From positions 1-63,239 of the forward strand of contig CAYHNZ010000002.1 in assembly GCA_964358205.1 (NCBI GenBank): a stretch of DNA of 63,239 nucleotides, read 5' to 3'. Below, piece after piece: positions 3,304 through 63,239 of the stretch. The position numbers were made by a program, and so were the translations under genes. Each line of letters opens with the position of its first letter. The stretch's first letter is position 1. The stretch comes from an uncultured Candidatus Saccharibacteria bacterium. GTDB taxonomy: Bacteria > Patescibacteriota > UBA1384 > 2-12-FULL-50-11. A model generated the notes under the pieces. That model was not told the origin of the DNA. It did not search any database and saw only the letters and a program-made list of their open reading frames with translations.

Positions 3304-4221
3304 ATGAAAAAACTCTGGTTATTCGTCGTCTTCGCCCTCGCGCTGGTTTCACCAGCGTACGGGGGACACTACGTCCTGAAATACGAGAGCAAGGGAATCG
3401 TTTCCCTAGCTCTCGACGACTCAAGAAGCGGTTCGGTAGAACTGATTTTTCAGCTCCTACCGCTGACTGGCGATTACTCGCCAGGCGCAGCCATAGTCAG
3501 ACTCGACGGTCAGCCAATCTGGCAGACTGACGGGTCGAGCTACCTAGGGAGCGTGACAATCCCCGAAACCGGGGAGATTCCCGTCCTAGACGGGACGAAA
3601 TTGCTTGTCCCAAACGTCAAACAGCCAAAGGCAGCTCCTATTCAAGTGAGCCGTCGTTGGTTTCTAGTCAAGCACCAGATTGAGGTTTACTTCTTGGCCA
3701 CAGATGGCCGGGGGAGATCCGACAAGAACCACTCTGCGGCGCCAGCGACGCAGTTCACGATCGAACCGATCGATCCGCCAACGGCGGCAACAACTCTTAG
3801 CGGTAGTCCGCTATCGGCCGATCAGCTCGACGCTGTGATCAAACAGTCTTACGAGCAGGGTGCCGTCGCGGGCAAAACTGCCTGGGAGAAGGAGCGTGAG
3901 CAACTTTTCGCCGAACTTCAAAAAGCGACTGACGAGCTCAACGAGCTTCGTCGAAAAGCTGCGACCCGGGGCGATTCCAAGCCAGGGGCGATGCCCTCGG
4001 CCGTTCGCTACCTGCCAGTTAAATGGGCACATCAAACTTGGCCGGAAGTTGGGGACGAAATGCTACTGGTTGATTCCAGAGGCAAAGTTGTTGCCAGGGC
4101 AAAGGTTGTTGAGGTTCTTCCTCAGCTCAGACGGATTTGGGTCTCCCTGACCCTTCCGATTGATTTCGACGTTCATCAGGGATATACGATCCAACGGCCG
4201 ACCGGCCGAGGAGACAAGTAA
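3304..4221 (+). CDS. Secreted hypothetical protein (GC-rich island)
   Basis: GAGGTGA ribosome-binding site. Signal peptide MKKLWLFVVFALALVSPAYG. Coiled-coil-like EKEREQLFAELQKATDELNELRRK. Confidence 0.8.
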   Translation: MKKLWLFVVFALALVSPAYGGHYVLKYESKGIVSLALDDSRSGSVELIFQLLPLTGDYSPGAAIVRLDGQPIWQTDGSSYLGSVTIPETGEIPVLDGTKLLVPNVKQPKAAPIQVSRRWFLVKHQIEVYFLATDGRGRSDKNHSAAPATQFTIEPIDPPTAATTLSGSPLSADQLDAVIKQSYEQGAVAGKTAWEKEREQLFAELQKATDELNELRRKAATRGDSKPGAMPSAVRYLPVKWAHQTWPEVGDEMLLVDSRGKVVARAKVVEVLPQLRRIWVSLTLPIDFDVHQGYTIQRPTGRGDK

Positions 4222-4222
4222 A

Positions 4223-5068
4223 GTGAAACTACTGAAAGTCATTCTCGCGGCACTGGTGGCCGCCCTCGTCGTTCCCGCCTTCGCGCAAGCGCAGGGCGGT
4301 TTCCTAGACCTAACCAAGGATCCCTTTATCGAAGGGGGTCTCAACGACACGATCGTCCAAGACGAGCTCCTTCCGGCGCTCAACGGGTTTGCTCCCAAGC
4401 TTAAGTCGGATGAAGCCTTCGCCTTCGCCTTCAATATGGACATCAAGAAGTTGCAAGTCGGATACCGGGACAAGAAAACCGGAAAGACCTATACAGCTTC
4501 TGGTTCTCTGCGGGCTGGCGAAAAAGTCCTGGGGACAATCGAATCACGCGAGGACATCGGCAACGGCACGGAAAAGCTGGTCGTTGTCGTTCGCTGGCTG
4601 TGGAAATGCGCCAACCCCCTCTTAATCCCTTTCAAGGTGATCCTCTACATTCCCAAGAGGCAGACTCTGGGGAAGACGATCATCCAGCGTATTGAGGTTC
4701 CCAGCCCATACGCAGTGAATGTCAAGGAGAACACGATCGTTCAGCAGATCGTCCCCTCGGTGGGGGATGTAGTGCTGAACGTCCCTGCTTCGCAAAGGGG
4801 GCGATATCGCCTTGTCGAGACCAGTCACGAAGAGGCCGGCCGAAGGCTCGAGTACCAGAAGAGCTGGTGGGACAATCTCCTCGACTTTTTAAAGGTCGTG
4901 GCGACTCCCATCGCCCAGATCCTCGGACGAACGAACATTAGTCTCAGCGCTACCGGTGGTGCTGGCGGAACGGCCTATGGCGGCAACGCCATTTCGTCAT
5001 CGTCATCGTCAGCCTCGGCTAGCGCTTCAGCCTCTGCGGCCGCTGCTGCGGCCGCCGGCGGCAACTAG
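4223..5068 (+). CDS. Secreted hypothetical protein with a Gly/Ser/Ala-rich C-terminus
   Basis: GTG at 4223 lies 9 nt after GAGGAG and 1 nt after the upstream stop. Signal peptide VKLLKVILAALVAALVVPAFAQA. Confidence 0.75.
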   Translation: MKLLKVILAALVAALVVPAFAQAQGGFLDLTKDPFIEGGLNDTIVQDELLPALNGFAPKLKSDEAFAFAFNMDIKKLQVGYRDKKTGKTYTASGSLRAGEKVLGTIESREDIGNGTEKLVVVVRWLWKCANPLLIPFKVILYIPKRQTLGKTIIQRIEVPSPYAVNVKENTIVQQIVPSVGDVVLNVPASQRGRYRLVETSHEEAGRRLEYQKSWWDNLLDFLKVVATPIAQILGRTNISLSATGGAGGTAYGGNAISSSSSSASASASASAAAAAAAGGN

Positions 5069-5187
5069 CCACCAACCCAATCCTAACCAGGGGAAACTTG
5101 CTCATTCGCAGGTTTCCCCCATCCCTTCTTGAACTAACAGTCGAATTGGTTTAAGAAGTAGATGTAAGTTTAACAAAAAGGAGGAAT

Positions 5188-5754
5188 ATGAAATATTTCA
5201 TCTTTTCACTCATCGCGCTGGCGATTGCTTTCGCAACTCCCGGTGTGATAGTGGCTTCTAGCTCAAGCTCAAGTTCATCTTCAGCTTCGAGCTCAGCTGC
5301 GGCTTCAGCTTCAGTTGGTGGCGGTTCGGCTTCGGCCGGTGCCGGTGCCAGCTCCGGTGCTGGTGCTGCCAGCTCGTCTGGTAATAATTCGTCTGGGTCA
5401 ACCAGTTCGTCTAGTTCCAGTTCGAGCTCCAGCGCTAGTTCGAGCGCTGCTGCTTCCGCAACTAGCGGTAACAAAACTGTTACTGCTGACAGCGTGAAGA
5501 ATTGCACGAGCGCTTCGGCCGGTAGTGCCGCTGGTTCGGGTGCAGCTGCTTCGGCATCTGCTTCTACCAGCTCGGCCGCTAGTGCCGCTGCGGCTACCAA
5601 CTGTCCGAAGACTGTCGTTACGACAGTCAAGACAGTTAAGTCGTTGCCTGCAACTGGTGCCGAAACGGTCCTATTGCCCGGTGCGTTAAGCGCCTTTGCC
5701 CTTGCGGCCCGCAAATTTGCGATGGCCAAAAAGGAAGCTGCTCTCTTAGCCTAA
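5188..5754 (+). CDS. LPXTG-anchored Ser/Ala-rich surface protein
   Basis: AAGGAGG ribosome-binding site and a signal peptide. The C-terminal LPATG is followed by a hydrophobic stretch and a basic tail, which is a sortase sorting signal. Confidence 0.8.
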   Translation: MKYFIFSLIALAIAFATPGVIVASSSSSSSSSASSSAAASASVGGGSASAGAGASSGAGAASSSGNNSSGSTSSSSSSSSSSASSSAAASATSGNKTVTADSVKNCTSASAGSAAGSGAAASASASTSSAASAAAATNCPKTVVTTVKTVKSLPATGAETVLLPGALSAFALAARKFAMAKKEAALLA

Positions 5755-5777
5755 CGGTTAAGAAAGTCGCGAGAAAA

Positions 5778-5798
5778 AGACCCGCAAGGGTCTTTTTC
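5778..5798 (+). terminator. Intrinsic terminator
   Basis: AGACCC-GCAA-GGGTCT hairpin followed by a T-run. Confidence 0.8.
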
Positions 5799-5842
5799 TT
5801 TAGACCCAAGATTTTTTGTTGGTTAACGGATACAATGGAGAC

Positions 5843-6832
5843 ATGAGCAATCAGGAACGAAAAGTGGAGTTAGCCGAAACTTTGCGGATTGACGAGAAGT
5901 CAGCGCGAATAAAGCAGATTGAGGCCGAGATGGCGACGCCGTCTTTTTGGCAAGAACACCAGCGAGCGGCTAAGCTAACCCAGGAGTTGAAGCATTTACA
6001 GGACTTTGTTGCTGAATTTGAGTCAGCCGAGACGGAAGCAGAACTAGAAGAGCTGGAAACCGAAGCGTTCTTTTCCGGCGACCACGACGATTCGTCTTGT
6101 TTTGTTGGCATTCACTCCGGTTCGGGCGGTGTCGATGCTCAAGATTGGGCGGAGATGTTAACTCGGATGTACACTCGCTACGGCGAAAGAGCCGACTACA
6201 AAGTAACCCTACTTGATCAAGCCGACGGCGAGGAAGCGGGGATTAAAAACGCGACCTTACTAATAGAAGGGTTCAGGGCATATGGCAAGCTTAAAGCCGA
6301 GAACGGCGTCCATCGATTAGTTCGAATTAGTCCCTTTGATGCTGCCAAAGCCAGGCACACCTCATTTGCCTTGGTGGAGGTCGTGCCGGAAGTAGCAGAC
6401 GCTCGAGAGGTCGAAATTAACACTGACGAAATCCGCATCGATGTTTACCGAGCCGGTGGCCGCGGTGGCCAGGGCGTTAACACTACCGATTCAGCTGTTC
6501 GAATAACTCACTTACCAACCAAGATTGTCGTTACCTGTCAAAACGAACGAAGCCAATTGCAAAATAAGGTCCAAGCGCTTAAAATTCTTCAGGGCAAGCT
6601 CCAATTACTTGATGACGAGAAGCGACGCATCGCCAACCAAAATCACAAGGGCGAGCCGGTCCTCGCCAGCTGGGGCAACCAAATCCGGTCGTATGTCTTA
6701 CAGCCATACCAGATGGTAAAAGATTTACGGAGCGGCTACGAAACATCTGGTGTCGATGATGTCCTTGATGGCCGTCTGGAGAATTTGATTAATGCTAACA
6801 TTAAACATTTTGCAAACTTAAAGAAAGGATAA
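5843..6832 (+). CDS. prfB: Peptide chain release factor 2
   Basis: SPF tripeptide (RISPFD) and GGQ motif (RGGQGVNTT). The ORF is continuous, so no +1 frameshift site is required. Confidence 0.9.
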   Translation: MSNQERKVELAETLRIDEKSARIKQIEAEMATPSFWQEHQRAAKLTQELKHLQDFVAEFESAETEAELEELETEAFFSGDHDDSSCFVGIHSGSGGVDAQDWAEMLTRMYTRYGERADYKVTLLDQADGEEAGIKNATLLIEGFRAYGKLKAENGVHRLVRISPFDAAKARHTSFALVEVVPEVADAREVEINTDEIRIDVYRAGGRGGQGVNTTDSAVRITHLPTKIVVTCQNERSQLQNKVQALKILQGKLQLLDDEKRRIANQNHKGEPVLASWGNQIRSYVLQPYQMVKDLRSGYETSGVDDVLDGRLENLINANIKHFANLKKG

Positions 6833-6835
6833 AAT

Positions 6836-7147
6836 ATGGAACTACCAAAATTCGGGCAGATGAAAGACATGTATTCGTTGGCCAAGAAAGCCAAGCAGAT
6901 GCAAAAGGAGTTGAAAGATCTTGAAGTCGAGGGACGCTCGGCTAACGGCGAGGTTACGGTTGTCGTTAGTGGTGAGATGAAAATTGTTTCCATCGACATC
7001 AGCGAGCATATGCTAGAACCCAGTAAAAAGCGGGAGCTAGAAGATGTCATCAAAGAAACAGTTGCTAAAGCCCTGGCGACCGCTCAAAGCGAATCGGCCG
7101 CCCGAATGCAGCCGCTACTGAAGGACATGAACTTTCCAGGAATGTAA
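6836..7147 (+). CDS. ybaB: YbaB/EbfC nucleoid-associated protein
   Basis: 103 aa. The KQMQKEL...GEVTVVVSGEMKIVSIDI pattern is typical of the family. Confidence 0.85.
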   Translation: MELPKFGQMKDMYSLAKKAKQMQKELKDLEVEGRSANGEVTVVVSGEMKIVSIDISEHMLEPSKKRELEDVIKETVAKALATAQSESAARMQPLLKDMNFPGM

Positions 7148-7239
7148 AGAATAACTCAAAACTCAAAAGTCCCACCTTCGCCGAGGCTTCGGCGGGCAGG
7201 CAAAAGTTAAAACGAAATATTAGTTAATAAATCAAAAAT

Positions 7240-7803
7240 ATGATTCTAATTATTGGATTGGGAAATCCGGGACAGAAATACGATAAGAACAGGCACAATC
7301 TGGGATTTTTAACGATAGGCGTATTAGCTAATAGGCTAGAACTAGAATCGAAGGAAGATAAGTATATGCTAGCTATGGTTGCTAAAGGCGGGGAGTATGA
7401 GCTGATTGCACCATTAACATATGTCAACGAATCTGGTCTGGCGGTGGTGAAAGTTCAGCAGAAGCATCAAATTGAGCTCAACGATATTTGGGTTGTACAC
7501 GACGATACCGAAATTCCTTTCGGCGAAGTTCGGGTCAAGCGTGGAGGAACTAGTGGTGGCCATAACGGCATCAAGTCGATCGATGAAGCAATCGGTACTG
7601 ACTATTGGCGGATTCGCATCGGTGTTGGTCGTCCGGAGAACCGCCAGTTTGATCTAGCTGACTATGTTTTGAGCGATTTTACGCCTGAAGAAGCGGGAGA
7701 GCTGCCGTTAATAATTGACCGAGTCACCGGTTTCCTGGTACAATCTCTCAAAGACAAGCAATTACAACCAACAACATTTAATGGCACGACCAAAAACAAT
7801 TAA
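7240..7803 (+). CDS. pth: Peptidyl-tRNA hydrolase
   Basis: LIIGLGNPG...YDKNRHNLGF N-terminus and GGHNGIKS motif. Confidence 0.92.
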   Translation: MILIIGLGNPGQKYDKNRHNLGFLTIGVLANRLELESKEDKYMLAMVAKGGEYELIAPLTYVNESGLAVVKVQQKHQIELNDIWVVHDDTEIPFGEVRVKRGGTSGGHNGIKSIDEAIGTDYWRIRIGVGRPENRQFDLADYVLSDFTPEEAGELPLIIDRVTGFLVQSLKDKQLQPTTFNGTTKNN

Positions 7804-8731
7804 CCAACCAGTCGAAGAAGAGAAGCTAGCGGAAGCGCAAAGCGAAATCATGCCTCACCATTCAGCCGAGGCCAGCTTTGATGAGTCGGCGAGCAATGTC
7901 GACGAAGAGGCAGAAAAGGAAACCGCGGTTGAAGAAGGGGCCGGTCTAGACCAAGCCTTACCGGCCGAAGTAGCGGCCATTCATGTCGGCAACGAATCGG
8001 CCATGGCTTTGAACAAAGCCGAGCCGTCGAAACTGGAGCGCAAAAAGGCCAAGAAAGTTGAACGCTCTGTTGAGAAAGCCGAAAAGGCCGCAACCAAAAA
8101 AGAAGTGGAATTAAAGAGTCGTCGCTCCAAAAAATACTTAGCCGCTCGAGCCAAAGTTGAGACAGGCAAGCTTTATTTATTGGCTGATGCCCTGACGTTA
8201 GTTAAAGAACTATCGATGTCTAAATTCGATGGTTCGGTTGAAATTCATCTTCGCCTAAACAAGAAAAAAGCTAAGGGTTCAACGGAATCGAGCCGCGGCG
8301 TCGTCCACCTGCCACACGGTACGGGCAAGGAAAAGAAAGTCGTCGTTTTGGACGAAAAAATGATTGACGAGATCGCCAAGACCAAAAAAATGGATTTTGA
8401 CATCTGTATCGCCAGCCCAGAATTAATGCCGAAAGTCGCTAAAATTGCCAAAATTTTGGGTCCTAAAGGTAAGATGCCCGACCCCAAATCCGGCACCGTC
8501 ACCAACGATCCGAAGAAAGTGATGGAAGAAATCAAGGGTGGTAAAACCGAATACCGCGTTGACGCCAGTGGAATTGTTCATCAAATAATCGGCAAGGTTT
8601 CCTGGGAAGATACAAAGTTGGCCGAAAACGCCAAGGTAGTGATGGCCATCTATCCGAAGTCGCGTCTCAACAGCGCCTTTGTCACTGCTTCAATCGCTCC
8701 GTCAATCCCGCTCGATTTGTCTAAATTCTAA
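7781..8731 (+). CDS. rplA: 50S ribosomal protein L1 with an N-terminal extension of about 100 aa
   Basis: The L1 core runs from SKKYLAARAKV... to the end. ATG at 7781 overlaps the pth 3' end. The start is uncertain; an internal Met at ...SAMALNK is possible. Confidence 0.85.
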   Translation: MARPKTINQPVEEEKLAEAQSEIMPHHSAEASFDESASNVDEEAEKETAVEEGAGLDQALPAEVAAIHVGNESAMALNKAEPSKLERKKAKKVERSVEKAEKAATKKEVELKSRRSKKYLAARAKVETGKLYLLADALTLVKELSMSKFDGSVEIHLRLNKKKAKGSTESSRGVVHLPHGTGKEKKVVVLDEKMIDEIAKTKKMDFDICIASPELMPKVAKIAKILGPKGKMPDPKSGTVTNDPKKVMEEIKGGKTEYRVDASGIVHQIIGKVSWEDTKLAENAKVVMAIYPKSRLNSAFVTASIAPSIPLDLSKF

Positions 8732-8746
8732 ATTCTAGAATCTAAA

Positions 8747-9280
8747 ATGTTAAATCGTCTGGTGGCGCCGTTGGGATTTCTCATCGGCCTGGTGGCACTG
8801 GCTTATGTTATGCAAACGCTGGGAAATTCATCGCCAACAAATAAACCCCTAGCTGGCCCGGAGCTATTAAAACAGTTTGAGATTGTCGAGATTGTCCCGC
8901 CAACGGCTATTGTGAACGACAAAGACGGCAAAAAAATAGATTTGACGACGCTTTTTGCCAAGCCAACCCTACTAACCTTTTGGAGCGTCAATTGTGGCGA
9001 ATGCGATACCGGCCTGCCGGTGCTAGATAATTTTGCTAATAACCAAAGCCAAATCGCAGTAATTATGATCGACACCAAAGATGAGCCGAAAGACGCCGAT
9101 GCCAAACTCAAGTTACTTGACGTAACGCTTGGAACTTATTTCGATCTCGACGGCTCGGCTTTCCAAAATTGGGAAGCGACAATGCCAGCGTCATATTTTG
9201 TTATCAACGGCAAAATCAAATACTATTTCCCTGGTCGAGTCAGTCAAGAGCATCTCGATGCTCTGTTGACGGTCCAGTAA
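8747..9280 (+). CDS. Membrane-anchored TlpA/ResA-like thiol-disulfide oxidoreductase
   Basis: N-terminal TM helix. Thioredoxin-fold motif LLTFWSVNCGECD (CxxC). Confidence 0.8.
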   Translation: MLNRLVAPLGFLIGLVALAYVMQTLGNSSPTNKPLAGPELLKQFEIVEIVPPTAIVNDKDGKKIDLTTLFAKPTLLTFWSVNCGECDTGLPVLDNFANNQSQIAVIMIDTKDEPKDADAKLKLLDVTLGTYFDLDGSAFQNWEATMPASYFVINGKIKYYFPGRVSQEHLDALLTVQ

Positions 9281-9299
9281 ATTTCTGCCACAATCATTA

Positions 9300-9395
9300 A
9301 GTCCAAAGACAGTAGGTGACCTCCGCCAGCCGACGGAACAAGTCGTAAGTCCTACCGAGGCAAGAACCAAATATGCCGGTCTTTGACACGGCTAA
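9300..9395 (+). promoter_or_regulatory. Candidate L10 (rplJ) autoregulatory leader
   Basis: Nested helices CAAAGAC/GTCTTTG and GTAGG/CCTAC enclose a CGAC...GTCG hairpin directly upstream of rplJ. The position matches known L10 leaders. No covariance-model search was possible. Confidence 0.4.
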
Positions 9396-9454
9396 TTCAT
9401 TAACCGTTTGAAAATTTAGTTGTTGAGTATTAATTGAAAACTGAAAATGTCGCT

Positions 9455-9487
9455 GACGCTCGCTCCTCACTTGAGGTTCGTAGTTGA
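9455..9487. repeat. Small hairpin repeat (CGCTCCTCAC-hairpin-GTTCGTAG family), copy R1
   Basis: Flanks are shared with 33172-33210 and 43288-43320, while the inner hairpin differs between copies. Confidence 0.6.
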
Positions 9488-9523
9488 TACTTGAAAATTG
9501 TTAAATCCGGAGGATTTAAGAAG

Positions 9524-10315
9524 ATGCCTATCTTAAGAGCCCAAAAAGTTGATCTAGTCGCCAAACTAACAGAGGAGTTGCAAAACTCCCGTGTTGCGTT
9601 GGTCTTTGCCTATACCGCCTTAAACATGAAGGCCAACGACACTCTACGCACCCGCGCTTTTGAGGGCGGCGCCAAGATTAAGATGATCTCCAATACTTTG
9701 CTAGCGATCATTTTAAAAAATATCGGCAAGGAATTGGAGATCCCACAAAAGACACTGGCTTTGGCCTACGGTTTTAACGACGAAGTAATCGCCGCTAAAA
9801 CTTTAGTCGAATTTGCCAAAGAAACCGAAGCTCTCGAAGTCTTGGGTGGCTGGGTTGATGGCAATTTCTTCGACGCCTTGCAAGTTAAAACTCTGGCCAC
9901 ACTCCCAAACAAAGAGACCCTGCAAGCCCAGTTGGTTGGTCGTCTGAACGGTTTAATCGGTGGTTTGGCATATTCTTTGAACTTCCCAATTCAGAAACTG
10001 GCCTTTGTGATGGAAGCGGTTAAATCTGCTAGCGGTGAGCCTGCAAGCGGTGAGCAAGTCGAATCCGTCGAATCCGCCCAGCCTGCAGTTGAAGTTGCTT
10101 CAGAAGAACCAGAAGCAGAGGAAAAAACAGAAGCGCCTGCTCCCGCCGAAGAGCAATCAAAAGACTTGTCCGATGACTTGTCCGCCGTAGCTTCAGCGGA
10201 GGAGGAAGCTTTAGCGGAGTCGGAAGAAACTAAAAATGAAGAACCCGTGGCTGAATCGCAAGACGAAGCGGGTGAAACGGAAGAAGTTCAAGAAGAAGTC
10301 AAAGAAGAAAATTAA
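9524..10315 (+). CDS. rplJ: 50S ribosomal protein L10 with an acidic C-terminal extension
   Basis: GGAGG ribosome-binding site before the ATG at 9524. L10-like core, then about 90 aa of E/S/A-rich tail. Lies directly upstream of rplL. Confidence 0.88.
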   Translation: MPILRAQKVDLVAKLTEELQNSRVALVFAYTALNMKANDTLRTRAFEGGAKIKMISNTLLAIILKNIGKELEIPQKTLALAYGFNDEVIAAKTLVEFAKETEALEVLGGWVDGNFFDALQVKTLATLPNKETLQAQLVGRLNGLIGGLAYSLNFPIQKLAFVMEAVKSASGEPASGEQVESVESAQPAVEVASEEPEAEEKTEAPAPAEEQSKDLSDDLSAVASAEEEALAESEETKNEEPVAESQDEAGETEEVQEEVKEEN

Positions 10316-10336
10316 GTTAATTAAGAAAGGAAATAA

Positions 10337-10723
10337 ATGGCAGAAAAAACAGACAAATTGATTGATCAGATTGCCGAGTTATCGGTAATGGAATTGAGTG
10401 AATTGGTAAAAGCTATTGAAGAGAAGTTTGGCGTGAGTGCGATGCCAGTCATGGCCGCAGGTGCTCCAGCTGCTGGTGGTGCCGCCGCCGGTGCAGAAGC
10501 CGCGGAAGAGAAGTCGGAGTACACCGTCGTTCTAACCGCTTCAGGCGAACAGAAGATCGCTGTTATTAAGGCCGTCCGTGAGATCAAACAGGACTTAGGT
10601 CTCAAAGAGGCCAAAGATCTCGTTGACGCTGCTCCAAAAGAGCTTGGCGTGATGAAGAAAGCCGACGCCGAAGAAGCTAAAAAGAAACTCGAAGAAGCCG
10701 GCGCTACGGTTGAGTTGAAGTAA
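10337..10723 (+). CDS. rplL: 50S ribosomal protein L7/L12
   Basis: Ala/Gly hinge and the C-terminal domain [11 protein letters not shown]...[10 protein letters not shown]...[10 protein letters not shown]. Confidence 0.95.
10691..10723 (+). repeat. Left copy of the 33-nt direct repeat (last 10 codons plus stop of rplL)
   Basis: Identical to 13555-13587. Confidence 0.95.
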
Positions 10724-10790
10724 TTCAATTCAAGCAACCTCGAGCGTAGTCGAGGGGCGCGAGCATAGAGCTTAAGCAAACGCTTTATTG

Positions 10791-10831
10791 AAAAAAAGAA
10801 GACCGTCAGGGAAAACCCTGACGGTCTTTTG
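10791..10831. terminator. Bidirectional intrinsic terminator
   Basis: 13-bp stem AAGACCGTCAGGG/CCCTGACGGTCTT, flanked by an A-run and a T-run. It lies between rplL and the convergent 858-aa gene. Confidence 0.85.
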
Positions 10832-10846
10832 GTTTAGTGGCAGTTG

Positions 10847-13423
10847 TTACCAGTCGCCACCGGACGATGAGTCACCGCCTCCACCGAAGCTTCCACCGGA
10901 TGAGGAGTCTCCACCTCCGCCCCAGCTTCCGCCGGAGCCGCTGCTTCCCCATGAGCTACTCGTGCTGCTCTCGTAGGAAGATTGACGTTGCCGTTCATCT
11001 TCTTCTTCACGTCGCCGTTTGGCGGCGGCTTCTTGTGCTTGTCGTTGCCTTTCCTCTTCCTCATAAGCGCGCTGAGCCTTGCGGGCCTCGCCTTCCCATG
11101 AAGATTCGTTTTGGTCGAGTAGAGCAAGAAGCACCACGTAGTCGGTGACGTCGCTGATCTGGGGCTGGTTAAAGCCCTTAAGTGTTAGAGAGCCGCCGTA
11201 TTCCTCGATCTTGCGTTGATAGCTGTCGCGTAGCGACTTCATCTTCGCAACGCGCTTCTCGAACTCGGCCTTCTTCTGGTCGAGCTCGTCGCAGTGACGA
11301 ACTGACCGCTTCGCCTGTTCGAGCGCTGAACTGAACTTTTCCAGCGCCCAGTCGGCGTTGTTGCGAGCGTTAAGGTGTCGGTTCTCGCCAAGCTGGCGCC
11401 TGGCTTTGTCCAGATCGCGCTTACCTTCGCTCAAGTGGCTTTCGGCAGCGCCGACAAAACCAGTCTGAACTTTAGCATGTACTTTCTGAGCATTAGTGAG
11501 ATGTAGGGTGGCAGCAGTGATCGCCTCGGTCGCTTCTGCTAACTTCGTCTCGGCCTTGGTGACGGAGTCTTGAGCGCCTTTGATAGCGCTCGTGATCGTC
11601 GCCGCTTGGTCGGCGGCCTTTGTGTAGAGCTCGTTTACCTTCCCGGCCTGCGCTTCAACCTCTGCGACGTCATCGGCACTTGCAAGGGTTCCCGCAAGCT
11701 TGTCCTCTGCGCGTCGGCCCAAATTGAAGGTAATGGTCGGGTCATCGTCAGGGTCGACGACGGTGTGAAGAGCTTCAGGCTGTGAGTCCATTCGGTTCGA
11801 ACGGGCGAGTGCGATCGCGTCAACCAATCGGTTGAATCGGTCGACGACGGTCTGCTCGGCCGAGTGAAGCTCGTTGAGTCGTTCGACGTAGGCTATAGGG
11901 TCGTCCCATGATAGGGCGTTAACCGAAGCATACAGGGAACTGTCTTTTGAATCGTCACCCGCCAACGGATGGTTTTGCAACCAGCGTTGGGGGATACCGA
12001 GCTCTTTCGCTTTGGCGTAGAGCTCATCGAGCGTTTTGGACGGAAACGATTCTTCCGCCGTTTTGCCGCGAGCTGCGAGGGCGTCCTTTAGCTCCTGCCA
12101 ACCTTCGACGTTTTGCTCAAACCGCTTCGCAAGCGATGCGGCGAGTACGGTCGGGTTGATCTTGATGACCTTAGTCTCCGGTTCGAATAGGCTGTCTTTA
12201 TTGACTTTACCGGTGTCGAAATCGAAGGGGCTGTTAAGCATCGCCAGAGCTGTGTTCAACGGTTTGAGGTTGAAGTAGCCGGCTTTCTTCGCCACAGCCT
12301 TGCACCTTTCGGCGTGGTCGCGTAGGGCTTCGACACCTAGGTAGATGTCATCAACCTCTTTGGTCACACTCTCGTAAGCTTCCTTGGTTTTTCCTTTCAC
12401 TGCTGTCAGAGCTAGGATATCACCGCGGTCGCCGTAGATTGCGAAGAACTGCTGAGCGGCATTGGTTGTCGCTTTTACTCGTTTTCCGAACTCCTCTGCG
12501 AACCTTTCCCGCAAATAGGAGTACCTGCGAAGTTGGGACAAAAAAGCCACAATCATTGCGACGAGTATGAGTATAGCCCATAGACATTTCAAGAAGATAT
12601 CCAGCTCACGACGAGCTTCTTCACTCATCCGGTCGCTGACGTAGCCTTCCAGCTTGTCAACGTCTGGCTTGAGTGCTGCTGCTGCGTTAAGCATCTCTTG
12701 GGGGTTGTTTCGTTGTCGAACCTTCCGTGCTTCGTCAAGGCTCTGTTTGTAGCCGCTGACATTGCCAGGCAGATACTCCCTGTGTCGAAGAAGTTCATCC
12801 AGTTTAGTTACCCGCTCGTTGATCAGTCCTTGCGCCTGAATCAGCCTTTCTTGCTCGGCCTGCCTTCTGGCAGCTTCGCGACGTTGGGCGATTTTGGCGG
12901 GGTCAGTCTGGTCGAACAGATAATCGTCGACGGCCCTCATCATGTTGATGATGCCGTTTTTCGGGTCCTTGCGTTGACCTTGAGTCGACGCCTTGAAGAC
13001 GTCGGTATACTGATCGTGCGCGCGGCTTCGAAAGTTGAGTTCGGTCTCAAATTTACTCCCAGCCAGGAAGCGATACTTCCGTGGACTGTAAGCAAGCAAG
13101 AAGATCTGCGACCTCGCCATGTCAAACGACGGATAGCGCTGACCCCACTGTTGAGCAAGGTTGTTGATGGCGTTAGCCGCCAATTGATCGCCATCGCCAG
13201 AACCCGGTAGGGTTTCGACGAGAATCACGTAGTAGGGGAAGTGGCAGCTTTTCGCCGCCCTTTCGATTTCGTCAATCCCGTTGTTGCCGATCATCGGCGG
13301 GTTGAACCCTTCGGGAATCGTGTAGACGAACTGGCCCTCGCGTAAAGCAGGGACATTGAGTTGGGCGCACGCAATTCCGTTGAAAAGCGTAGCGACAAGG
13401 ACGAGTAAGAAACGCATTTTCAT
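10847..13423 (-). CDS. TPM-domain (YgcG-like) membrane protein with a long coiled-coil insert (GC-rich cargo gene)
   Basis: AGGTGA ribosome-binding site and a signal peptide. TPM-like PYYVILVETLPG...IFLLAYSPRKYRFLAG. One TM helix, a coiled-coil region of about 480 aa, and a Gly/Ser-rich ...GGGGDSSSGGDW tail typical of TPM proteins. Confidence 0.85.
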   Translation of the reverse strand: MKMRFLLVLVATLFNGIACAQLNVPALREGQFVYTIPEGFNPPMIGNNGIDEIERAAKSCHFPYYVILVETLPGSGDGDQLAANAINNLAQQWGQRYPSFDMARSQIFLLAYSPRKYRFLAGSKFETELNFRSRAHDQYTDVFKASTQGQRKDPKNGIINMMRAVDDYLFDQTDPAKIAQRREAARRQAEQERLIQAQGLINERVTKLDELLRHREYLPGNVSGYKQSLDEARKVRQRNNPQEMLNAAAALKPDVDKLEGYVSDRMSEEARRELDIFLKCLWAILILVAMIVAFLSQLRRYSYLRERFAEEFGKRVKATTNAAQQFFAIYGDRGDILALTAVKGKTKEAYESVTKEVDDIYLGVEALRDHAERCKAVAKKAGYFNLKPLNTALAMLNSPFDFDTGKVNKDSLFEPETKVIKINPTVLAASLAKRFEQNVEGWQELKDALAARGKTAEESFPSKTLDELYAKAKELGIPQRWLQNHPLAGDDSKDSSLYASVNALSWDDPIAYVERLNELHSAEQTVVDRFNRLVDAIALARSNRMDSQPEALHTVVDPDDDPTITFNLGRRAEDKLAGTLASADDVAEVEAQAGKVNELYTKAADQAATITSAIKGAQDSVTKAETKLAEATEAITAATLHLTNAQKVHAKVQTGFVGAAESHLSEGKRDLDKARRQLGENRHLNARNNADWALEKFSSALEQAKRSVRHCDELDQKKAEFEKRVAKMKSLRDSYQRKIEEYGGSLTLKGFNQPQISDVTDYVVLLALLDQNESSWEGEARKAQRAYEEEERQRQAQEAAAKRRREEEDERQRQSSYESSTSSSWGSSGSGGSWGGGGDSSSGGSFGGGGDSSSGGDW

Positions 13424-13554
13424 GTCATCACCTGTGAAAGGGCAGTAACGGACAAGTCCGTTATGTTTACTGGCTGCATTTTACCCCAACAAACTGATTT
13501 TGTCCAGAGTTCAGGGCATTATTTTGTTACTCTGAAATTGTGAAGAAAAAGCTT

Positions 13555-13587
13555 GAAGAAGCCGGCGCTACGGTTGAGTTGAAGTAA
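13555..13587 (+). repeat. Right copy of the 33-nt direct repeat (orphan rplL 3' end)
   Basis: Identical to 10691-10723. The four preceding codons still read KKKL but with synonymous changes. It is followed by the native-looking terminator. Confidence 0.95.
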
Positions 13588-13612
13588 GAATTCCCAAATT
13601 CTAAATGCGAGA

Positions 13613-13647
13613 ACCGCCCTCCGCCAGCCGGCGGAAGGGCGGTTTTT
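13613..13647. terminator. Intrinsic terminator (convergent)
   Basis: Stem ACCGCCCTCCGCC...GGCGGAAGGGCGGT followed by TTTTT. Confidence 0.85.
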
Positions 13648-13648
13648 G

Positions 13649-14062
13649 CTAATTGCCTAAAATTTTTCTAATTTTTGGGACAACCCGCTGGTGATTGGGC
13701 CAGGTTAAAACCTTGTCTAATTCGTCAAGTAAATACCAACTATGTTCTTCGTTACCCTCTAAATAATGCACGTCGACATTAGGAATCTCAATCAGAAACG
13801 CCCATTCGGTTGAAAGCTTATCCCATGTTTTGAGCTCAACGATTTCCCTGTGATTGAGATTGATAAGCGAGATCGGCTCTACACCTAGTTCTTCGATGGT
13901 TTCGCGCCGAGCCGCTTGCTCAAGCGTTTCGTCCGGGATATTGTCGCCAACGTGGCCACTCAAAACACTCTTAGTATCATCATGGCGATGGAGTACAAAA
14001 AATTCCGTCTGGCCGTAATTTTGACGATAGGCAAACATCAGTATTTTGGTCACTTTTTGCAT
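13649..14062 (-). CDS. Nudix hydrolase
   Basis: Nudix box GHVGDNIPDETLEQAARRETIEELGV. Confidence 0.88.
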   Translation of the reverse strand: MQKVTKILMFAYRQNYGQTEFFVLHRHDDTKSVLSGHVGDNIPDETLEQAARRETIEELGVEPISLINLNHREIVELKTWDKLSTEWAFLIEIPNVDVHYLEGNEEHSWYLLDELDKVLTWPNHQRVVPKIRKILGN

Positions 14063-39390: not shown

Positions 39391-39592
39391 GTTTACTGCC
39401 TTTAAACCTTGTGAGGCAAACGAACTCACTTCGGTCGAGGTCAACAGGACCACGCGCTGGGTACGATACCCAGGGCGCTTTCTCGCTGTTCAATCTCCAA
39501 GAAGCCCGCGAGATGACTTCAGGTTGAGTTAAATTTAGCACTAGGGTGCCAGATTGTCTATACTTATCGTCCGAAAAATTAGCTCTATTATC

Positions 39593-39760
39593 TACTTCAG
39601 ACTTTAGCCTTGAGACTTCAGACTTAGTAGAAAATTATTGCCTTAATTTTCTACGGATGAAAGAAGGTACATCGAGCTCGTCTTCGTCTGTACCTCCATC
39701 TTTGATGTCACGACTGCGACCCTTAGTGACAAAAGCATTGTCGGCTGTTTCGGTCTCGAC
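39593..39760 (-). repeat. Copy of the ftsZ 3' end (last 42 codons, stop and 3' UTR), fused to the Nudix gene
   Basis: Offset by 731 nt from 40324-40491. 39620-39712 is identical. 39713-39760 differs at 13 of 48 positions, all synonymous. Confidence 0.95.
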
Positions 39761-40267
39761 CGTTTCGAGCCACGCTTGAACCATCTCTTCACCGTTTTTA
39801 AATGCCATTCTCTCGGGCAACTCATTATAGGAAAACCATCGCAATTCTTCGATGTCATCGCCTGGCGTTAAAACACCCCCGATCACCTCGGCAATAAAAC
39901 AGATATTCAGGGTTTTCTCGCCGGTGGTTCCGTAACTATCCATGAAAAATCCGAGCATATCCCCCAGCTCAACAGACAGTCCGGTTTCTTCTTTTGCCTC
40001 TCTCACCGCACCGTCTTCTGGTTTTTCACCCAAATTTAAGAAGCCGCCGATTACATCCCACCTTCCCTTGGCAGGCTCAATCCTTCTTTTACCTAATAAA
40101 ACTCTATTCCCGTCAGTTATAAGAGTACTTGCTGTGGGCTTAGAATTTAGATAAACAACAGAGTTGCAGTTTGAGCACGCATATCTTTCTGGTTCGCCCT
40201 GGTGGTCGTATTGGATACTACAGTTAGGACAATATTTATAATCCATGTTGGTATGATAGTAATTCAT
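39635..40267 (-). CDS. NudC-like Nudix hydrolase (N-terminal zinc ribbon) carrying the FtsZ C-terminal linker and peptide
   Basis: CPNC...CSNC ribbon and Nudix box GGFLNLGEKPEDGAVREAKEETGL. The last 42 aa ([10 protein letters not shown]...[15 protein letters not shown]) are identical to the FtsZ C-terminus. Confidence 0.85.
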   Translation of the reverse strand: MNYYHTNMDYKYCPNCSIQYDHQGEPERYACSNCNSVVYLNSKPTASTLITDGNRVLLGKRRIEPAKGRWDVIGGFLNLGEKPEDGAVREAKEETGLSVELGDMLGFFMDSYGTTGEKTLNICFIAEVIGGVLTPGDDIEELRWFSYNELPERMAFKNGEEMVQAWLETVETETADNAFVTKGRSRDIKDGGTDEDELDVPSFIRRKLRQ

Positions 40268-40323
40268 TGCCTAGCCAATGAATGGTTCTCTGTTTGAAAA
40301 CTTGATTCTTGTGACTTATTATT

Positions 40324-40491
40324 TACTTCAGACTTTAGCCTTGCGACTTTAGACTTAGTAGAAAATTATTGCCTTAATTTTCTACGGATGAAAGAAGGTA
40401 CATCGAGCTCGTCTTCGTCTGTACCTCCATCTTTGATGTCACGGGAACGGCCTTTGGTCACAAAGGCGTTGTCGGCTGTTTCAGTTTCAAC
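40324..40491 (-). repeat. ftsZ-resident copy of the duplicated 3' end
   Basis: See 39593-39760. Confidence 0.95.
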
Positions 40492-41592
40492 TGGAAAAGA
40501 TGGTTGTGGTTGGATGGGTGTTTGGTGACTAAAAAATGGAATGTTTGAGGCGAAAGGCGCTTGAGGTGCGCCGAGAGTAGCACCAAAACCTACCGGCTCT
40601 TCTGAACCAAATCGTGATCTTGCCTTTGGAACTGGTTTAGATATTTCATTTTCAAAACCAGTCGCGATAACCGTGACTTTAATCTCGCCCGACATCGAAT
40701 CATCGACAGTGGCGCCGAAAATAACATTGGCTTCGGGATCGGCCGCTTCAGTGATAGCCTTAGACACCTCCTCAACTTCATACATAGTCATATCAGGTCC
40801 GCCGGTGATGTTATAAAGAATGCCCCGCGCCCCATCGATTGATAGCTCAAGCAGAGGCGAGTCAATCGCCTGACGAGCCGATTCAATCGCTCCATTTTCA
40901 CCAGCCGCCAGACCGATACCCATTAAAGCCGATCCGGCATCTTTCATAATTGTTCGAACGTCAGCAAAGTCAACATTAATAATAGCCGGTACGACGATAA
41001 TTTCAGAAATTCCCTGAACGCCTTGGCGTAGGATATCGTCAACAATACCAAAGGCGTCGCTCATCGAAGTTTTCTTGTCGATGACCTGCAATAGGCGGTC
41101 GTTGGGAATTGTAATTAATGTATCGACCTTCTCCCGGAGTTCTTCGATACCGAGTTCAGCGATTTTTTTGCGACGAAGACCTTCAAAACTAAACGGTTTA
41201 GTAACAACACCGACAGTCAAAGCACCGAGTTCTTTGGCAATCTGGGCGATCAACGGTGCTGCACCAGTACCAGTACCACCGCCAGCGCCACAAGTGACAA
41301 AAACCATATTAGCCCCCTTAAGCACTTCGTAAATCTCGTCCTTGTTTTCCTCTGCTGACTTACGCCCAACCTCCATATCGGCCCCCGACCCTAATCCTTG
41401 GGTAGTTTCCTTGCCGATTTGAACTTTAATGGGCGCTGGATTACCCATTAACGCCTGCGCATCAGTATTGATAGCGATAAACTCGACGCCACGAACTCTA
41501 GCGGCGATCATTCGGGCGACGGCGTTGCCGCCAGCACCGCCGATACCGCAGACTTTAATACTCGCGAACGTGTCTAAAGTTTCCTTATTCAT
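40366..41592 (-). CDS. ftsZ: Cell division protein FtsZ
   Basis: Tubulin signature [17 protein letters not shown], and the conserved C-terminal peptide DVPSFIRR. Confidence 0.97.
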
Positions 41593-44262: not shown

Positions 44263-44335
44263 TAGTTTTTAAATTGTAGCAGGAAATTGGGAATTAGTTA
44301 ATGGGTTTCGTGCCGCCGACCGGCGGCGTGAGTTT

Positions 44336-44615
44336 GCGACTGCGTCGCTGGCTTTTTTGTGAGGGTGGAGGGGGTTACTCTCGCTAGAGAGCGAGCGAAC
44401 TTCGGTTCGCGACAATTGCGAAGCACCCCCTACAACATTAATGAAGCCGGGGTTTTGGCGTCTTAACAGACAAGCCTCAATCCGCTCGACCGGTTCGAAC
44501 TAAAGCAGTTTAGTTCTCACGAGCGGTCTCGCCCCCGCACGCTACGCTATCGCGAATAAGGTAAAGAGTAACTCGCTGGACCGCCAGCTGGCGGTACCAT
44601 GGCTCGTCACTTTTT
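44336..44615 (+). repeat. Structured mosaic repeat, copy B (long form with a 95-nt internal insertion)
   Basis: The 5' 99 nt are near-identical to copy E. 44435-44530 is an insertion shared only with copy A. The 3' block is shared with A, C and D. Confidence 0.9.
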
Positions 44616-44708
44616 GGCTAGTAATAACTATGGCTTGCGGTTTTTTATCTTGCACCAGAAGTGGATTCGTACTATTATCCTTGCAGGCAACGCTACGAGG
44701 TGAACCTT

Positions 44709-46803: not shown

Positions 46804-47277
46804 TCATGATTTCGTCTCAAGCGCGAGTGTAACTTTTGTCTTTATCGCTTCAATACAGTTCGGTAACCTTCGGGCCATTCTTGGGCTCAGAAGCTTGGAA
46901 CACTCATCGATTGGTTTGAAGGCGTACTCGTCTAACTCCTCGTTTTGTAGACTGATTTTTCCAACCTGTTCTTTCGTAAGGACGCCACCGTAAAAGAAGA
47001 ACTTGAGAGAATCTTCGTGATTTTTGGCTGTGTAATTGTGATCAACACAGAGTAACTGTTTGTAATCAAGCTTGAGACCTACCTCCTCTAAAACCTCCCT
47101 ACCGCAGGTCTGGAGCGGAGACTCTCCCTCATCACTTACACCGCCTGGAATATTCCAATGATCTCGGTAATTTGGCTTAACGATCAACATCTTGCCTTGT
47201 TCGTCGAAAATGAACGCACCTGAAGCAACGATTTTCCTTGATAGGGATTTGATATATTCATCGTGAGGTAAATACAT
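46804..47277 (-). CDS. Nudix hydrolase
   Basis: Nudix box GGVSDEGESPLQTCGREVLEEVGL. Confidence 0.88.
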   Translation of the reverse strand: MYLPHDEYIKSLSRKIVASGAFIFDEQGKMLIVKPNYRDHWNIPGGVSDEGESPLQTCGREVLEEVGLKLDYKQLLCVDHNYTAKNHEDSLKFFFYGGVLTKEQVGKISLQNEELDEYAFKPIDECSKLLSPRMARRLPNCIEAIKTKVTLALETKS

Positions 47278-47283
47278 GTCCTC

Positions 47284-47327
47284 ATTCTACTCCCGAACCT
47301 GCTGATCCGCCAGCTGGCGGAGTCGAG
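47284..47327 (-). promoter_or_regulatory. Cassette intergenic module, copy m1 (with an inserted CCGCCAGCTGGCGG hairpin)
   Basis: On the minus strand: CTCGAC-hairpin-GGTTCGGGAGTAGAAT, then 6 nt, then ATG. Confidence 0.6.
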
Positions 47328-47918
47328 CTATTTCTTTTTTGCTAAGAGCCAGGCGGGCTCGGGGATGAAAGTGATTTCTGGCCAGGCATCGATCTCGTGC
47401 TCGGTAAAGTCGTAGTATTTTTGGTAGGCCGTCTCGACACTACCGTGCATTGCATCTTTCCAGTCAAAACCGAGTTTACTGGCCAACTTTTTTATATCTA
47501 ATTCGTTCGGTGCTTCTAGCTCGACAAATGTCGGAATCCACGGCCAGGTATCGATGGTGATTTCGCAGTCGCCAAGGGCCCACTTCTCTCTTTTGGTCTC
47601 TTGGTAGGATTTTTGTACTAGGCCAATGGCCTTAAGCAAGCTGACAGTTTTTTCGAAGTCCCCTACCGTCGTTTCGATCTCTTGTGTACCGTGAAGGGTG
47701 CGATCATTCAGTTGTTTATAAGAAAAAGTAATCTTGTCGCCTTCGTCGCGAACGCGGATCCAGCCACCGATTTCTTTTAGTCGCGAATCTGGATAATCAA
47801 AAACACAGCGACGCATCTGACGTTCGGAGTGCACTAATTTAGCGCCGATTGTACTCAACTTGCCACGTAGATCGTCGGCATCAATATCCAAAAACTTAGC
47901 CTCAACCTCTACCTGCAT
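47328..47918 (-). CDS. CYTH-domain protein (CyaB/ThTPase-like)
   Basis: N-terminal EVEAKF (ExExK) motif in a protein of about 196 aa. Confidence 0.85.
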   Translation of the reverse strand: MQVEVEAKFLDIDADDLRGKLSTIGAKLVHSERQMRRCVFDYPDSRLKEIGGWIRVRDEGDKITFSYKQLNDRTLHGTQEIETTVGDFEKTVSLLKAIGLVQKSYQETKREKWALGDCEITIDTWPWIPTFVELEAPNELDIKKLASKLGFDWKDAMHGSVETAYQKYYDFTEHEIDAWPEITFIPEPAWLLAKKK

Positions 47919-47924
47919 TTCCCA

Positions 47925-47953
47925 ATTCTACTCCCGAACCCAGAATTGTCGAG
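47925..47953 (-). promoter_or_regulatory. Cassette intergenic module, copy m2
   Basis: On the minus strand: CTCGACAATTCTGGGTTCGGGAGTAGAAT, then TGGGAA, then ATG. Confidence 0.6.
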
Positions 47954-47981
47954 CTACCGAGCAATGCAATTGAAGATTTGG

Positions 47982-48476: not shown

Positions 48477-49031
48477 TTAGACATCAACTAACTCGGCTGT
48501 ATTTTTGTATTCGTCAAAATCGGCTACGAATTGAATGGTTTTCAAATCGGCACGCTCAATAAACAGCACTCCATTCAAATGGTCGATTTCATGCTGAAGA
48601 ATTCGGGCTAATTTACCGTCAAAGCTTTTTTGTTGATGATTACCATTCTCATCTAGGTAACGTACCTCAATTTCGGCCGGTCGGATAACCGCCGCAATTA
48701 AAGGCAAGCTACTTAAGCATCCTTCCGGAAAAGTATTGTTATTTTTTGAATGCTTAATAATAACTGGATTAATAAATGGAAGGTAAAGACCTTCCCAAAA
48801 GACGACAGTTAACGATTTAGAAATGCCTATTTGCGGCGCCGCAAGAGCGACTCCCCTACCCAGCCTTCGGATCTTATTCAATGTTTGCTTGAGTTTCTGA
48901 ATATCTTTAGTTGTTTGGCCACAACTAATTTCGTTGTTTGTGATTTGCTTCGTCTTGGCGCGAAGGATAGGATCGCCCAACCAACGAATTTCTTCTGGGA
49001 ATTTTGCTAGTTTTCTCAACTCTTCTTTCAT
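48477..49031 (-). CDS. def: Peptide deformylase
   Basis: Motifs GVALAAPQIG, EGCLS and HEIDHLNG. Confidence 0.93.
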   Translation of the reverse strand: MKEELRKLAKFPEEIRWLGDPILRAKTKQITNNEISCGQTTKDIQKLKQTLNKIRRLGRGVALAAPQIGISKSLTVVFWEGLYLPFINPVIIKHSKNNNTFPEGCLSSLPLIAAVIRPAEIEVRYLDENGNHQQKSFDGKLARILQHEIDHLNGVLFIERADLKTIQFVADFDEYKNTAELVDV

Positions 49032-49037
49032 AATTAG

Positions 49038-49066
49038 ATTCTACTCCCGAACCTAGAAATGTCGAG
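49038..49066 (-). promoter_or_regulatory. Cassette intergenic module, copy m3
   Basis: On the minus strand: CTCGACATTTCTAGGTTCGGGAGTAGAAT, then CTAATT, then ATG. It starts directly after the upstream stop. Confidence 0.6.
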
Positions 49067-49681: not shown

Positions 49682-49687
49682 TTTCTG

Positions 49688-49716
49688 ATCTTACTCCCGA
49701 ACCCAGAATTGTCGAG
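49688..49716 (-). promoter_or_regulatory. Cassette intergenic module, copy m4
   Basis: On the minus strand: CTCGACAATTCTGGGTTCGGGAGTAAGAT, then CAGAAA, then ATG. It starts directly after the upstream stop. Confidence 0.6.
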
Positions 49717-63056: not shown

Positions 63057-63111
63057 GACGGCTGGCTCCGACACGCCCGAAAAGCTCGAATCTTTGCCTC
63101 AAGGCAGCCTC
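63057..63111. repeat. Direct repeat, copy 1 (55 nt or more)
   Basis: GACGGCTGGCTCCGACACGCCCGAAAAGCTCGAATCTTTGCCTCAAGGCAGCCTC recurs exactly at 63185-63239. Confidence 0.95.
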
Positions 63112-63184: not shown

Positions 63185-63239
63185 GACGGCTGGCTCCGAC
63201 ACGCCCGAAAAGCTCGAATCTTTGCCTCAAGGCAGCCTC
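63185..63239. repeat. Direct repeat, copy 2 (truncated by the window end)
   Basis: Exact copy of 63057-63111, with a period of 128 nt. Confidence 0.95.

Follow-up and report, generated by a model that had tools for sequence, protein, structure and literature searches.

In a 63,239-nucleotide (nt) stretch of DNA from an uncultured Candidatus Saccharibacteria bacterium (GCA_964358205.1, contig CAYHNZ010000002.1; hereafter the window), a gene for an 858-amino-acid (aa) membrane protein lies between two copies of the 3′ end of rplL, the gene for ribosomal protein L7/L12. This arrangement is probably the footprint of a Campbell-type single-crossover insertion-duplication by host homologous recombination, with a related Patescibacteria lineage as the donor. 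Gene gain by streamlined, uncultivated Patescibacteria is poorly understood, and the four footprints presented here (at rplL, at ftsZ, and twice at a heliorhodopsin gene), all within ~80 kb taken from two related genomes, suggest a route.

The window represents a Patescibacteria population of Hainich groundwater well H43, and six independent H43 assemblies are colinear with it at 99.85 to 100% identity. A preliminary description, made from the sequence alone, had noted the repeat at rplL and a similar case at ftsZ and had proposed a trans-mobilized mechanism that inserts cassettes at the 3′ ends of highly expressed essential genes.

The duplicated rplL end and the inserted gene

The 33-nt sequence GAAGAAGCCGGCGCTACGGTTGAGTTGAAGTAA occurs twice in the window without a mismatch, at 10691-10723 and 13555-13587, as had been described; it had no match in any of 100 shuffled sequences with up to 3 mismatches permitted. 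The full repeat is 45 nt long (10679-10723 versus 13543-13587; 91% identity). Its 4 mismatches are all synonymous third-position differences within KKKL codons, in agreement with the earlier remark that different codons spell these residues before the second copy, and they are not randomly placed, with 4 in the 12-nt flank and 0 in the 33-nt core (Fisher p = 0.003). Outside the 45 nt, no homology was found on either side of the two copies (the scores were reached by 403 of 500 and 482 of 500 shuffles). The right joint is at 13542/13543, and the first 12 nt of the right copy, AAGAAAAAGCTT, are in the same state as in the rplL genes of three relatives (L009, L091, and L093). Both junctions are spanned in three independent assemblies (L001, L002, and L004, from different samples and filter fractions), so the repeat is not an assembly artifact, and all seven population contigs that encode an identical L12 are in the occupied state. 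The features are listed in Table 1.

The inserted unit holds merely 123 nt plus 119 nt of noncoding DNA and one open reading frame (ORF), on the opposite strand and with the bidirectional terminator that had been reported for it; the unit has no recombinase gene, as had also been stated, its one ORF having a predicted TPM fold. Local alignment of the right end of the inserted DNA (13507-13542) to the native terminators of L091 and L093 gave scores reached by 56 and 61 of 2000 shuffles, respectively, which is marginal. The same segment does not resemble the terminator of the window itself (787 of 2000 shuffles) and is possibly a relic of the donor's terminator.

The 858-aa protein consists of a signal peptide, a TPM-fold domain, one membrane helix, a long coiled coil, and a Gly/Ser-rich tail. 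Its designation as a TPM-domain membrane protein stands at the level of fold but not of sequence profile. The Pfam match to TPM (PF04536) is below threshold (E = 0.017; 15.5 bits versus a cutoff of 22.1; residues 52-166), and weak TPM profile matches were obtained for 2 of 19 members of the family. The predicted fold is supported by an AlphaFold model of the N-terminal 285 residues (predicted local distance difference test score, 91). In a Foldseek comparison of the model with the PDB, the top six matches had a probability of 1.0 and target-normalized template-modeling (TM) scores of 0.54 to 0.65, with E = 3.7e-4; these matches (2kw7, BA41/BA42, TLP18.3, and Psb32) we take to be TPM-domain proteins. 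A PDB profile search with the family returned weak coiled-coil noise only. An exact look-up of the protein gave no match, though the population contigs carry it at 99.9% identity.

Homologues were found solely in Patescibacteria, including Berkelbacteria and Uhrbacteria, and those at unrelated chromosomal loci have neither a recombinase nearby nor exact flanking direct repeats. The inserted gene has a guanine-plus-cytosine (GC) content of 55.1%, versus 47.7% for the remainder of the window. In each of the six genomes checked, the homologue exceeds its surrounding locus in GC content by 2 to 10 points; the excess is therefore a property of the family and not a sign of foreign origin, and the earlier view of an insertion with atypical composition is not supported. 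In Candidatus Berkelbacteria CP066697 (L007), a homologue is part of a ~9-kb, nine-gene block (3449-12417) between rpsJ and rplC, genes that are normally adjacent. This block is not counted as a further case because no flanking direct repeat of at least 18 nt was found.

Table 1. Features of the rplL and ftsZ loci in the window and of the corresponding loci in relatives
Feature	Position (nt)	Strand	Remarks
rplL (ribosomal protein L7/L12), intact	10337..10723	+	Pfam Ribosomal_L12_N and Ribosomal_L12
Left copy, 45-nt duplicated rplL 3′ end	10679..10723	+	Exact block 10691-10723 ends in the stop codon
Bidirectional terminator	10792..10835		Serves rplL and the inserted gene; inserted DNA; kept in L009
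Inserted gene, 858 aa	10847..13423	-	Sole ORF between the rplL copies
Promoter-like site of the inserted gene	13478..13506	-	TGGACA-17-TAAAAT; kept in L009
Right end of inserted DNA	13507..13542		Weak likeness to right arm/tail of relatives' native rplL terminator
Right copy, rplL 3′ remnant	13543..13587	+	14 residues plus stop codon
Native rplL terminator	13607..13649		Also terminates the convergent NUDIX gene
NUDIX hydrolase gene, 137 aa	13649..14062	-	Native downstream side
Right copy, ftsZ 3′ remnant	39586..39775	-	Runs into native downstream sequence; exact block 39620-39712
Inserted NUDIX gene, 210 aa	39635..40267	-	
Left copy, duplicated ftsZ 3′ end	40317..40506	-	~140 coding nt plus ~50 nt downstream; exact 93-nt block 40351-40443
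ftsZ, intact	40366..41592	-	Pfam Tubulin and FtsZ_C
L009 heliorhodopsin 3′ remnant 1	~5658-5748	-	74% nt identity, reading frame intact
L009 heliorhodopsin 3′ remnant 2	4864-4966	-	87% nt identity, 26-nt exact block
L091, 3′ of rplL stop			Hairpin ...aaaccgcctttccgggcggtttttgcta..., then heliorhodopsin gene
L093, 3′ of rplL stop			gaatccttaaattctaaatgcgagagccgccctccgccaactggcggatgggcggtttttgcta
L094 and L095, 3′ of rplL stop			Terminator at once
L009, 3′ of rplL stop			Homologue of the 858-aa gene (59% aa identity)

The rplL locus in related lineages

Five related lineages (L091, L093, L094, L095, and L009) were obtained from a metagenome scan with L10 and context look-ups. L091 comes from the same well and is the nearest relative by prfA, L1, and L10 (92 to 94% aa identity). 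The inserted gene is absent behind rplL in L091, L093, L094, and L095, where a terminator follows rplL directly. Window positions 13588-13652 are ~90% identical, as judged by eye and not computed, to the sequence behind the rplL stop codon of L093 and are homologous to that of L091. In the relatives, the right copy and its hairpin have their orthologue in the native rplL end. The gene has therefore been inserted here, and its insertion duplicated the 3′ end of rplL; the preliminary description was right about both the insertion and the native terminator.

L009 is the only relative with the gene at this position, and its order of rplL, bidirectional terminator, inserted gene, and promoter is colinear with the window. 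No rplL repeat is present in L009, although the gene occupies the same position; the preliminary description had held that a relative of this kind would speak against its reading. Behind the L009 promoter comes GGCGGTTTTTGCTA, with a perfect 14-nt match to the native terminator's right arm (0 of 2000 shuffles). L009 may have lost a remnant by deletion between two AGGGC repeats or may never have had one. Its orthologue of the 137-aa NUDIX gene is located 7.4 kb farther from the inserted gene. The 7.4-kb block (antitoxin, ParE, heliorhodopsin, and others through radical SAM) is missing between the inserted gene and the NUDIX gene of the window, and at its far end, beside the NUDIX orthologue, a sequence resembling a transfer RNA was seen by eye at ~250-420 of L009.

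The nucleotide identity of the window rplL is 88.5% to L009 and 80.6% to L091; the identity of L10 is 87% to L091 and 68% to L009. By L10 and L1, the window pairs with L091, and L009 pairs with L093. In conflict with this, rplL groups the window with L009 and L091 with L093, and the nearest relative changes over inside the L10 tail. The window rplL (10337-10723) and its neighbors (9524-10315) thus group differently, and L091's own rplL goes with that of L093. From these groupings, rplL appears to have been exchanged repeatedly among these lineages and is a putative recombination and phylogenetic joint. The DNA 3′ of rplL is different in every relative examined and therefore marks a flexible spot. 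A scan of genome contigs with L12 yielded 80 loci, all with at most 65% identity and none of them a close relative. As a negative control, a second copy of the rplL end was found at 0 of 83 other rplL loci.

Recurrence at ftsZ and heliorhodopsin

The same architecture is present at ftsZ, as had been claimed, and also twice behind the heliorhodopsin gene of L009. The ftsZ copies share a 93-nt exact block with diverged flanks on either side. A 98-nt spacer separates ftsZ from the inserted NUDIX gene. The inserted NUDIX ORF is without its own last ~6 codons and reads through in frame into the FtsZ C-terminal remnant, so that the fusion tail comprises the last ~41 to 42 FtsZ residues, including the conserved 15-residue peptide; the joint lies within ...GCGTGGCTCGAAACG/GTCGAGACC..., with the slash marking the join. 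The fusion is unique among 107 NUDIX homologues, the other 106 being mostly 160 to 200 aa long and aligning to the NUDIX part only, and is therefore a recent accident; it was called independently on another contig (P0036). Three lineages (L106, L107, and L108) have a normal NUDIX gene of 165 to 185 aa directly behind ftsZ with no remnant. In L104 and L105, the NUDIX gene is absent behind ftsZ, and the L105 sequence downstream of ftsZ matches the right-copy side in the window. The FtsZ C-terminal peptide is the docking motif for FtsA, so that the NUDIX-FtsZ tail could conceivably bring the enzyme to the division ring; it could also be neutral.

In L009, the minus-strand region 4864-7155 contains heliorhodopsin, a 133-aa gene, remnant 1, an NT5C gene, and remnant 2. 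The two remnants would represent two successive, stacked insertion-duplications. Since heliorhodopsin is a third target and is nonessential, the proposed preference for highly expressed essential genes is not supported.

In each case, a chromosomal segment flanking the insert is directly duplicated (45 nt at rplL, ~190 nt at ftsZ, and ~103 nt at heliorhodopsin), and in three of the four events, the copies have in common an exact block of 26 to 93 nt (33, 93, and 26 nt) within diverged homology. Synonymous and nonsynonymous changes between copies number 4 and 0 at rplL, 11 and 0 at ftsZ, and 10 and 1 at heliorhodopsin, or 25 and 1 in sum. Because the differences are nearly exclusively synonymous, both copies evolved as working gene ends before they met, and the synonymous flank is better explained as an allelic difference between a donor and a recipient copy of one gene. 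Both the empty state and a repeat-free occupied state are known in relatives for two of the three targets. No duplicated ends of further genes were found in the window beyond those of rplL and ftsZ.

Origin of the insertions

The mechanism proposed here is drawn in all its steps from anatomy and comparison. A stretch of chromosome from a related Patescibacteria lineage would have entered a cell in which rplL stood directly before its terminator. The donor would already have had the gene for the TPM-fold membrane protein right behind rplL, as L009 does, and the fragment would have begun 45 nt before the rplL stop codon, taken in the gene with its promoter, and ended a few dozen bases farther on. 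The rplL 3′ end would have been the sole homology between fragment and recipient, and a crossover in the exact 33-nt block would have inserted the entire 2864-nt unit, the incoming molecule having been circularized or its far end joined illegitimately. We infer the crossover and the circularization. On the left, the outcome would be a complete rplL and, on the right, a 5′-truncated rplL remnant on the recipient's own terminator and downstream gene. The same process could account for the NUDIX insertion at ftsZ, with its fusion to the C-terminal FtsZ peptide, and for both heliorhodopsin remnants of L009. Recombination between the direct repeats could permit precise loss or further spread.

Several observations fit this mechanism. 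An exact block embedded in diverged homology is where a crossover and its conversion tract would be expected to fall. The inserted units are colinear with donor-type chromosomes, namely those of L009 (rplL and the inserted gene) and of L106, L107, and L108 (ftsZ and NUDIX). The apparent targeting of 3′ ends would arise because an essential gene survives intact only with fragments that include its stop codon. At 33, 93, and 26 nt, the exact blocks reach or exceed the minimal identity needed by RecA. It has been reported that Patescibacteria retain genes for homologous recombination and for competence and that they exchange genes for ribosomal proteins (PMC12455944).

Other points weigh against insertion-duplication. 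The rplL repeat ends exactly at the stop codon, like the repeats left by integrases at rplL (PMC4701971). No donor genome, circular intermediate, or recA was seen (recA is not in the window). A pure Campbell event does not of its own accord render the core identical, so that prior identity or an associated conversion tract is needed. The entire rplL, not just its last 45 nt, is L009-like, which means that more than one exchange took place at the locus; because, in addition, the inserted proteins of the window and L009 are just 59% identical, the history of the locus is layered. The duplication may also have arisen in another lineage and arrived in a larger island. Remnant 1 of L009 has no exact block of at least 24 nt in common with the present gene by a scan, and its longest identical runs by eye are ~14 nt. 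The recombinase search was confined to the window.

Site-specific integration, which we regard as unlikely, would make the unit a minimal or decayed integrative element, similar to a cis-mobilizable element (CIME) or an integrative and mobilizable element (IME), with an attachment (att) site that mimics the rplL 3′ end. Its tyrosine or serine integrase would be encoded elsewhere or since lost, and the 33-nt core would be the att site, kept identical by cycles of integration and excision. The direct repeats are att-like in holding the 3′ end of the target gene, with the exact block terminating at the stop codon, and the sharp edge between an identical core and a synonymously diverged flank resembles that of e14 and phage 21 at icd; the stacked remnants of L009 look like accretion at an att site. 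Against this, no recombinase or transposase family was matched by Pfam among the ORFs of at least 110 aa in the 63-kb window, about a dozen of which were without any Pfam match, and none is on record at the L009 locus. No integrative and conjugative element (ICE) or integrase was seen in the window, and the unit has no room for a decayed integrase, given how little of it is noncoding. No motif is common to the three targets (they share words of 7 to 8 nt at most), their repeat lengths are very different, and the ftsZ junction cuts into the inserted ORF, unlike a defined element end. The lack of exact direct repeats around homologues of the inserted gene elsewhere, the occupied state of every population contig with an identical L12, and the absence of the rplL 3′-end pattern from viral contigs (0 matches) argue in the same direction. 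For these reasons, the trans-mobilized mechanism of the preliminary description is not supported. The sequence TGAAGTAA, found where the rplL and ftsZ repeats have their 3′ edge, was weighed as a shared end motif (~0.2 chance matches expected); it is missing from the right ftsZ copy and from heliorhodopsin and was rejected. The unit has no terminal inverted repeats, no transposase of a transposon, insertion sequence, or miniature inverted-repeat transposable element, and a 45-nt repeat that is not a target-site duplication. No conjugation, mobilization, or phage modules lie between the rplL repeats; the VirD4/TrwB-like ATPases at 19 to 25 kb are outside the unit and colinear with L091. No attC or dif-like site was found at the unit boundaries, where the two terminators are the only imperfect palindromes, and the repeat core, by eye, is GC-rich coding sequence with no dif-like AT-rich center.

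An origin in place, which strikes us as quite improbable, would require no transfer between lineages: an old insertion, made in the ancestor that the window and L009 segments share, would have been accompanied by a local duplication of the rplL end, gene conversion would keep the 33 nt identical, and L009 would have lost its remnant through a 120-nt deletion between two AGGGC repeats. L009 does read ...cagaggc/ggtttttgcta... exactly where the window has AGGGC at 13513-13517 and 13635-13639, so that such a deletion would yield the L009 sequence, and the likeness of 13507-13542 to a terminator is merely marginal. A neutral old remnant should, however, show nonsynonymous changes and indels; the rplL remnant has 4 synonymous and 0 nonsynonymous changes in 45 nt, and the three cases jointly have the 25-to-1 ratio given above. 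Also against an origin in place, the remnant flank equals the rplL state in other lineages, the site is empty in L093 (sister to L009), the rplL phylogeny is incongruent with that of its neighbors, and the ftsZ fusion is confined to this population. A chimeric join of two coexisting strains at a shared k-mer is barely credible. The 33 nt do equal a common assembler k-mer size, but both junctions are crossed, at no less than 99.85% identity, in the three assemblies of separate samples and filter fractions, the 13542/13543 junction is not at a sequence common to empty-type and occupied-type strains, and the ftsZ fusion was called separately on P0036. It is a long shot, finally, that these Patescibacteria have recombinase-free "homology cassettes" or an undiscovered trans-acting enzyme aimed at gene 3′ ends. 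Such a cassette may consist of a gene and a recoded 3′ end of its conserved neighbor, as a portable attachment site for host RecA; cassettes of this kind may loop out, reinsert behind the same conserved gene in other lineages, and build arrays. If real, they would be a systematic mechanism of gene gain in ultrasmall genomes.

Comparison with known systems

In insertion-duplication mutagenesis, a circular molecule with a chromosomal fragment integrates in Campbell fashion into the chromosome of naturally transformable bacteria. The footprints described here resemble its products: the homologous segment is directly duplicated on both sides of the insert, neither a recombinase nor a specific sequence is required, the gene stays intact only if the fragment has its 3′ end, and recombination between the repeats can reverse the event. 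Unlike that procedure, the present case is a natural event with very short homology (45 to 190 nt) and diverged donor and recipient alleles; the donor molecule would be a piece of a relative's chromosome and not a plasmid, and no circle was observed.

Homology-facilitated illegitimate recombination is closely akin to the mechanism proposed here, but its classical experimental events mostly delete recipient DNA rather than duplicating it. The "sequential displacement" model, which is likewise akin, was put forward for type VI secretion system (T6SS) effector-immunity arrays and orphan 3′ regions of Rhs and contact-dependent inhibition (CDI) genes (PMC5361080, which cites Prudhomme 2002, de Vries and Wackernagel 2002, and Meier and Wackernagel 2003 on homology-facilitated illegitimate recombination). 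As in that model, a conserved stretch serves as the anchor, new DNA adjoins it, the old 3′ part is shifted downstream and retained, and repeated events give arrays, such as the two heliorhodopsin remnants of L009, with no integrase. The displaced 3′ part of T6SS and Rhs loci is a functional toxin or immunity module, in contrast to the functionless remnant or accidental fusion tail seen here.

The elements e14 and phage 21 integrate at icd in Escherichia coli. ICEs of the ICESa2603/Tn5252 family integrate at rplL in streptococci (PMC4701971), the same target gene as here. As with such integrase-borne elements, the rplL repeat is the exact 3′ end with its stop codon, and the insert brings a synonymous replacement end. 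Those elements encode a tyrosine integrase beside the att site together with transfer or phage modules, unlike the unit in the window, which has one gene and no recombinase and is accompanied by further targets of unrelated sequence. Replacement flexible genomic islands are exchanged by homologous recombination in conserved flanking genes (PMC4033161). The variable region downstream of rplL, bounded by conserved genes with mosaic phylogeny, is similar; ordinary double-crossover replacement, by contrast, leaves no duplicated gene end.

If insertion-duplication is correct, a brief stretch of homology at a conserved gene's end may suffice for host recombination to capture a relative's neighboring gene. 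The old gene end would stay behind as a datable scar that marks recent transfer between lineages without composition signals and identifies donor and recipient alleles, and such events can create accidental fusions, such as that of NUDIX with the FtsZ C-terminal peptide. A duplicated gene end should, with due caution, not always be taken for the att site of an integrase.

Other repeats in the window

A structured-looking noncoding element of 140 to 320 nt is present in three copies (1-171, 34120-34262, and 44300-44620). The element is conserved in its 3′ part (...CCCCGCACGCTAC...GTAAAAAGTAACTCGCTGGA..GTACCATGGCTCG..ACTTTTT) and varies in the middle. There were no Rfam matches in the window or in this element, for the latter even at E ≤ 1. 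A related-looking sequence was seen by eye in L105 between ftsZ and a ribonucleotide reductase gene. An exact 55-nt repeat occurs at 63057-63111 and 63185-63239, 128 nt apart. The window's final base is also that of the second copy, and the assembly probably stopped in this repeat. A conserved 45-nt sequence is found on the minus strand at 47275-47320, 47913-47957, 49026-49070, and 49676-49720, directly upstream of four small, unrelated genes (NUDIX, CYTH, deformylase, and peptidase S51). It reads TCGACA-N17-TAGAAT, followed by ATG 6 to 7 nt on, which suggests a shared promoter for nearly leaderless mRNAs.

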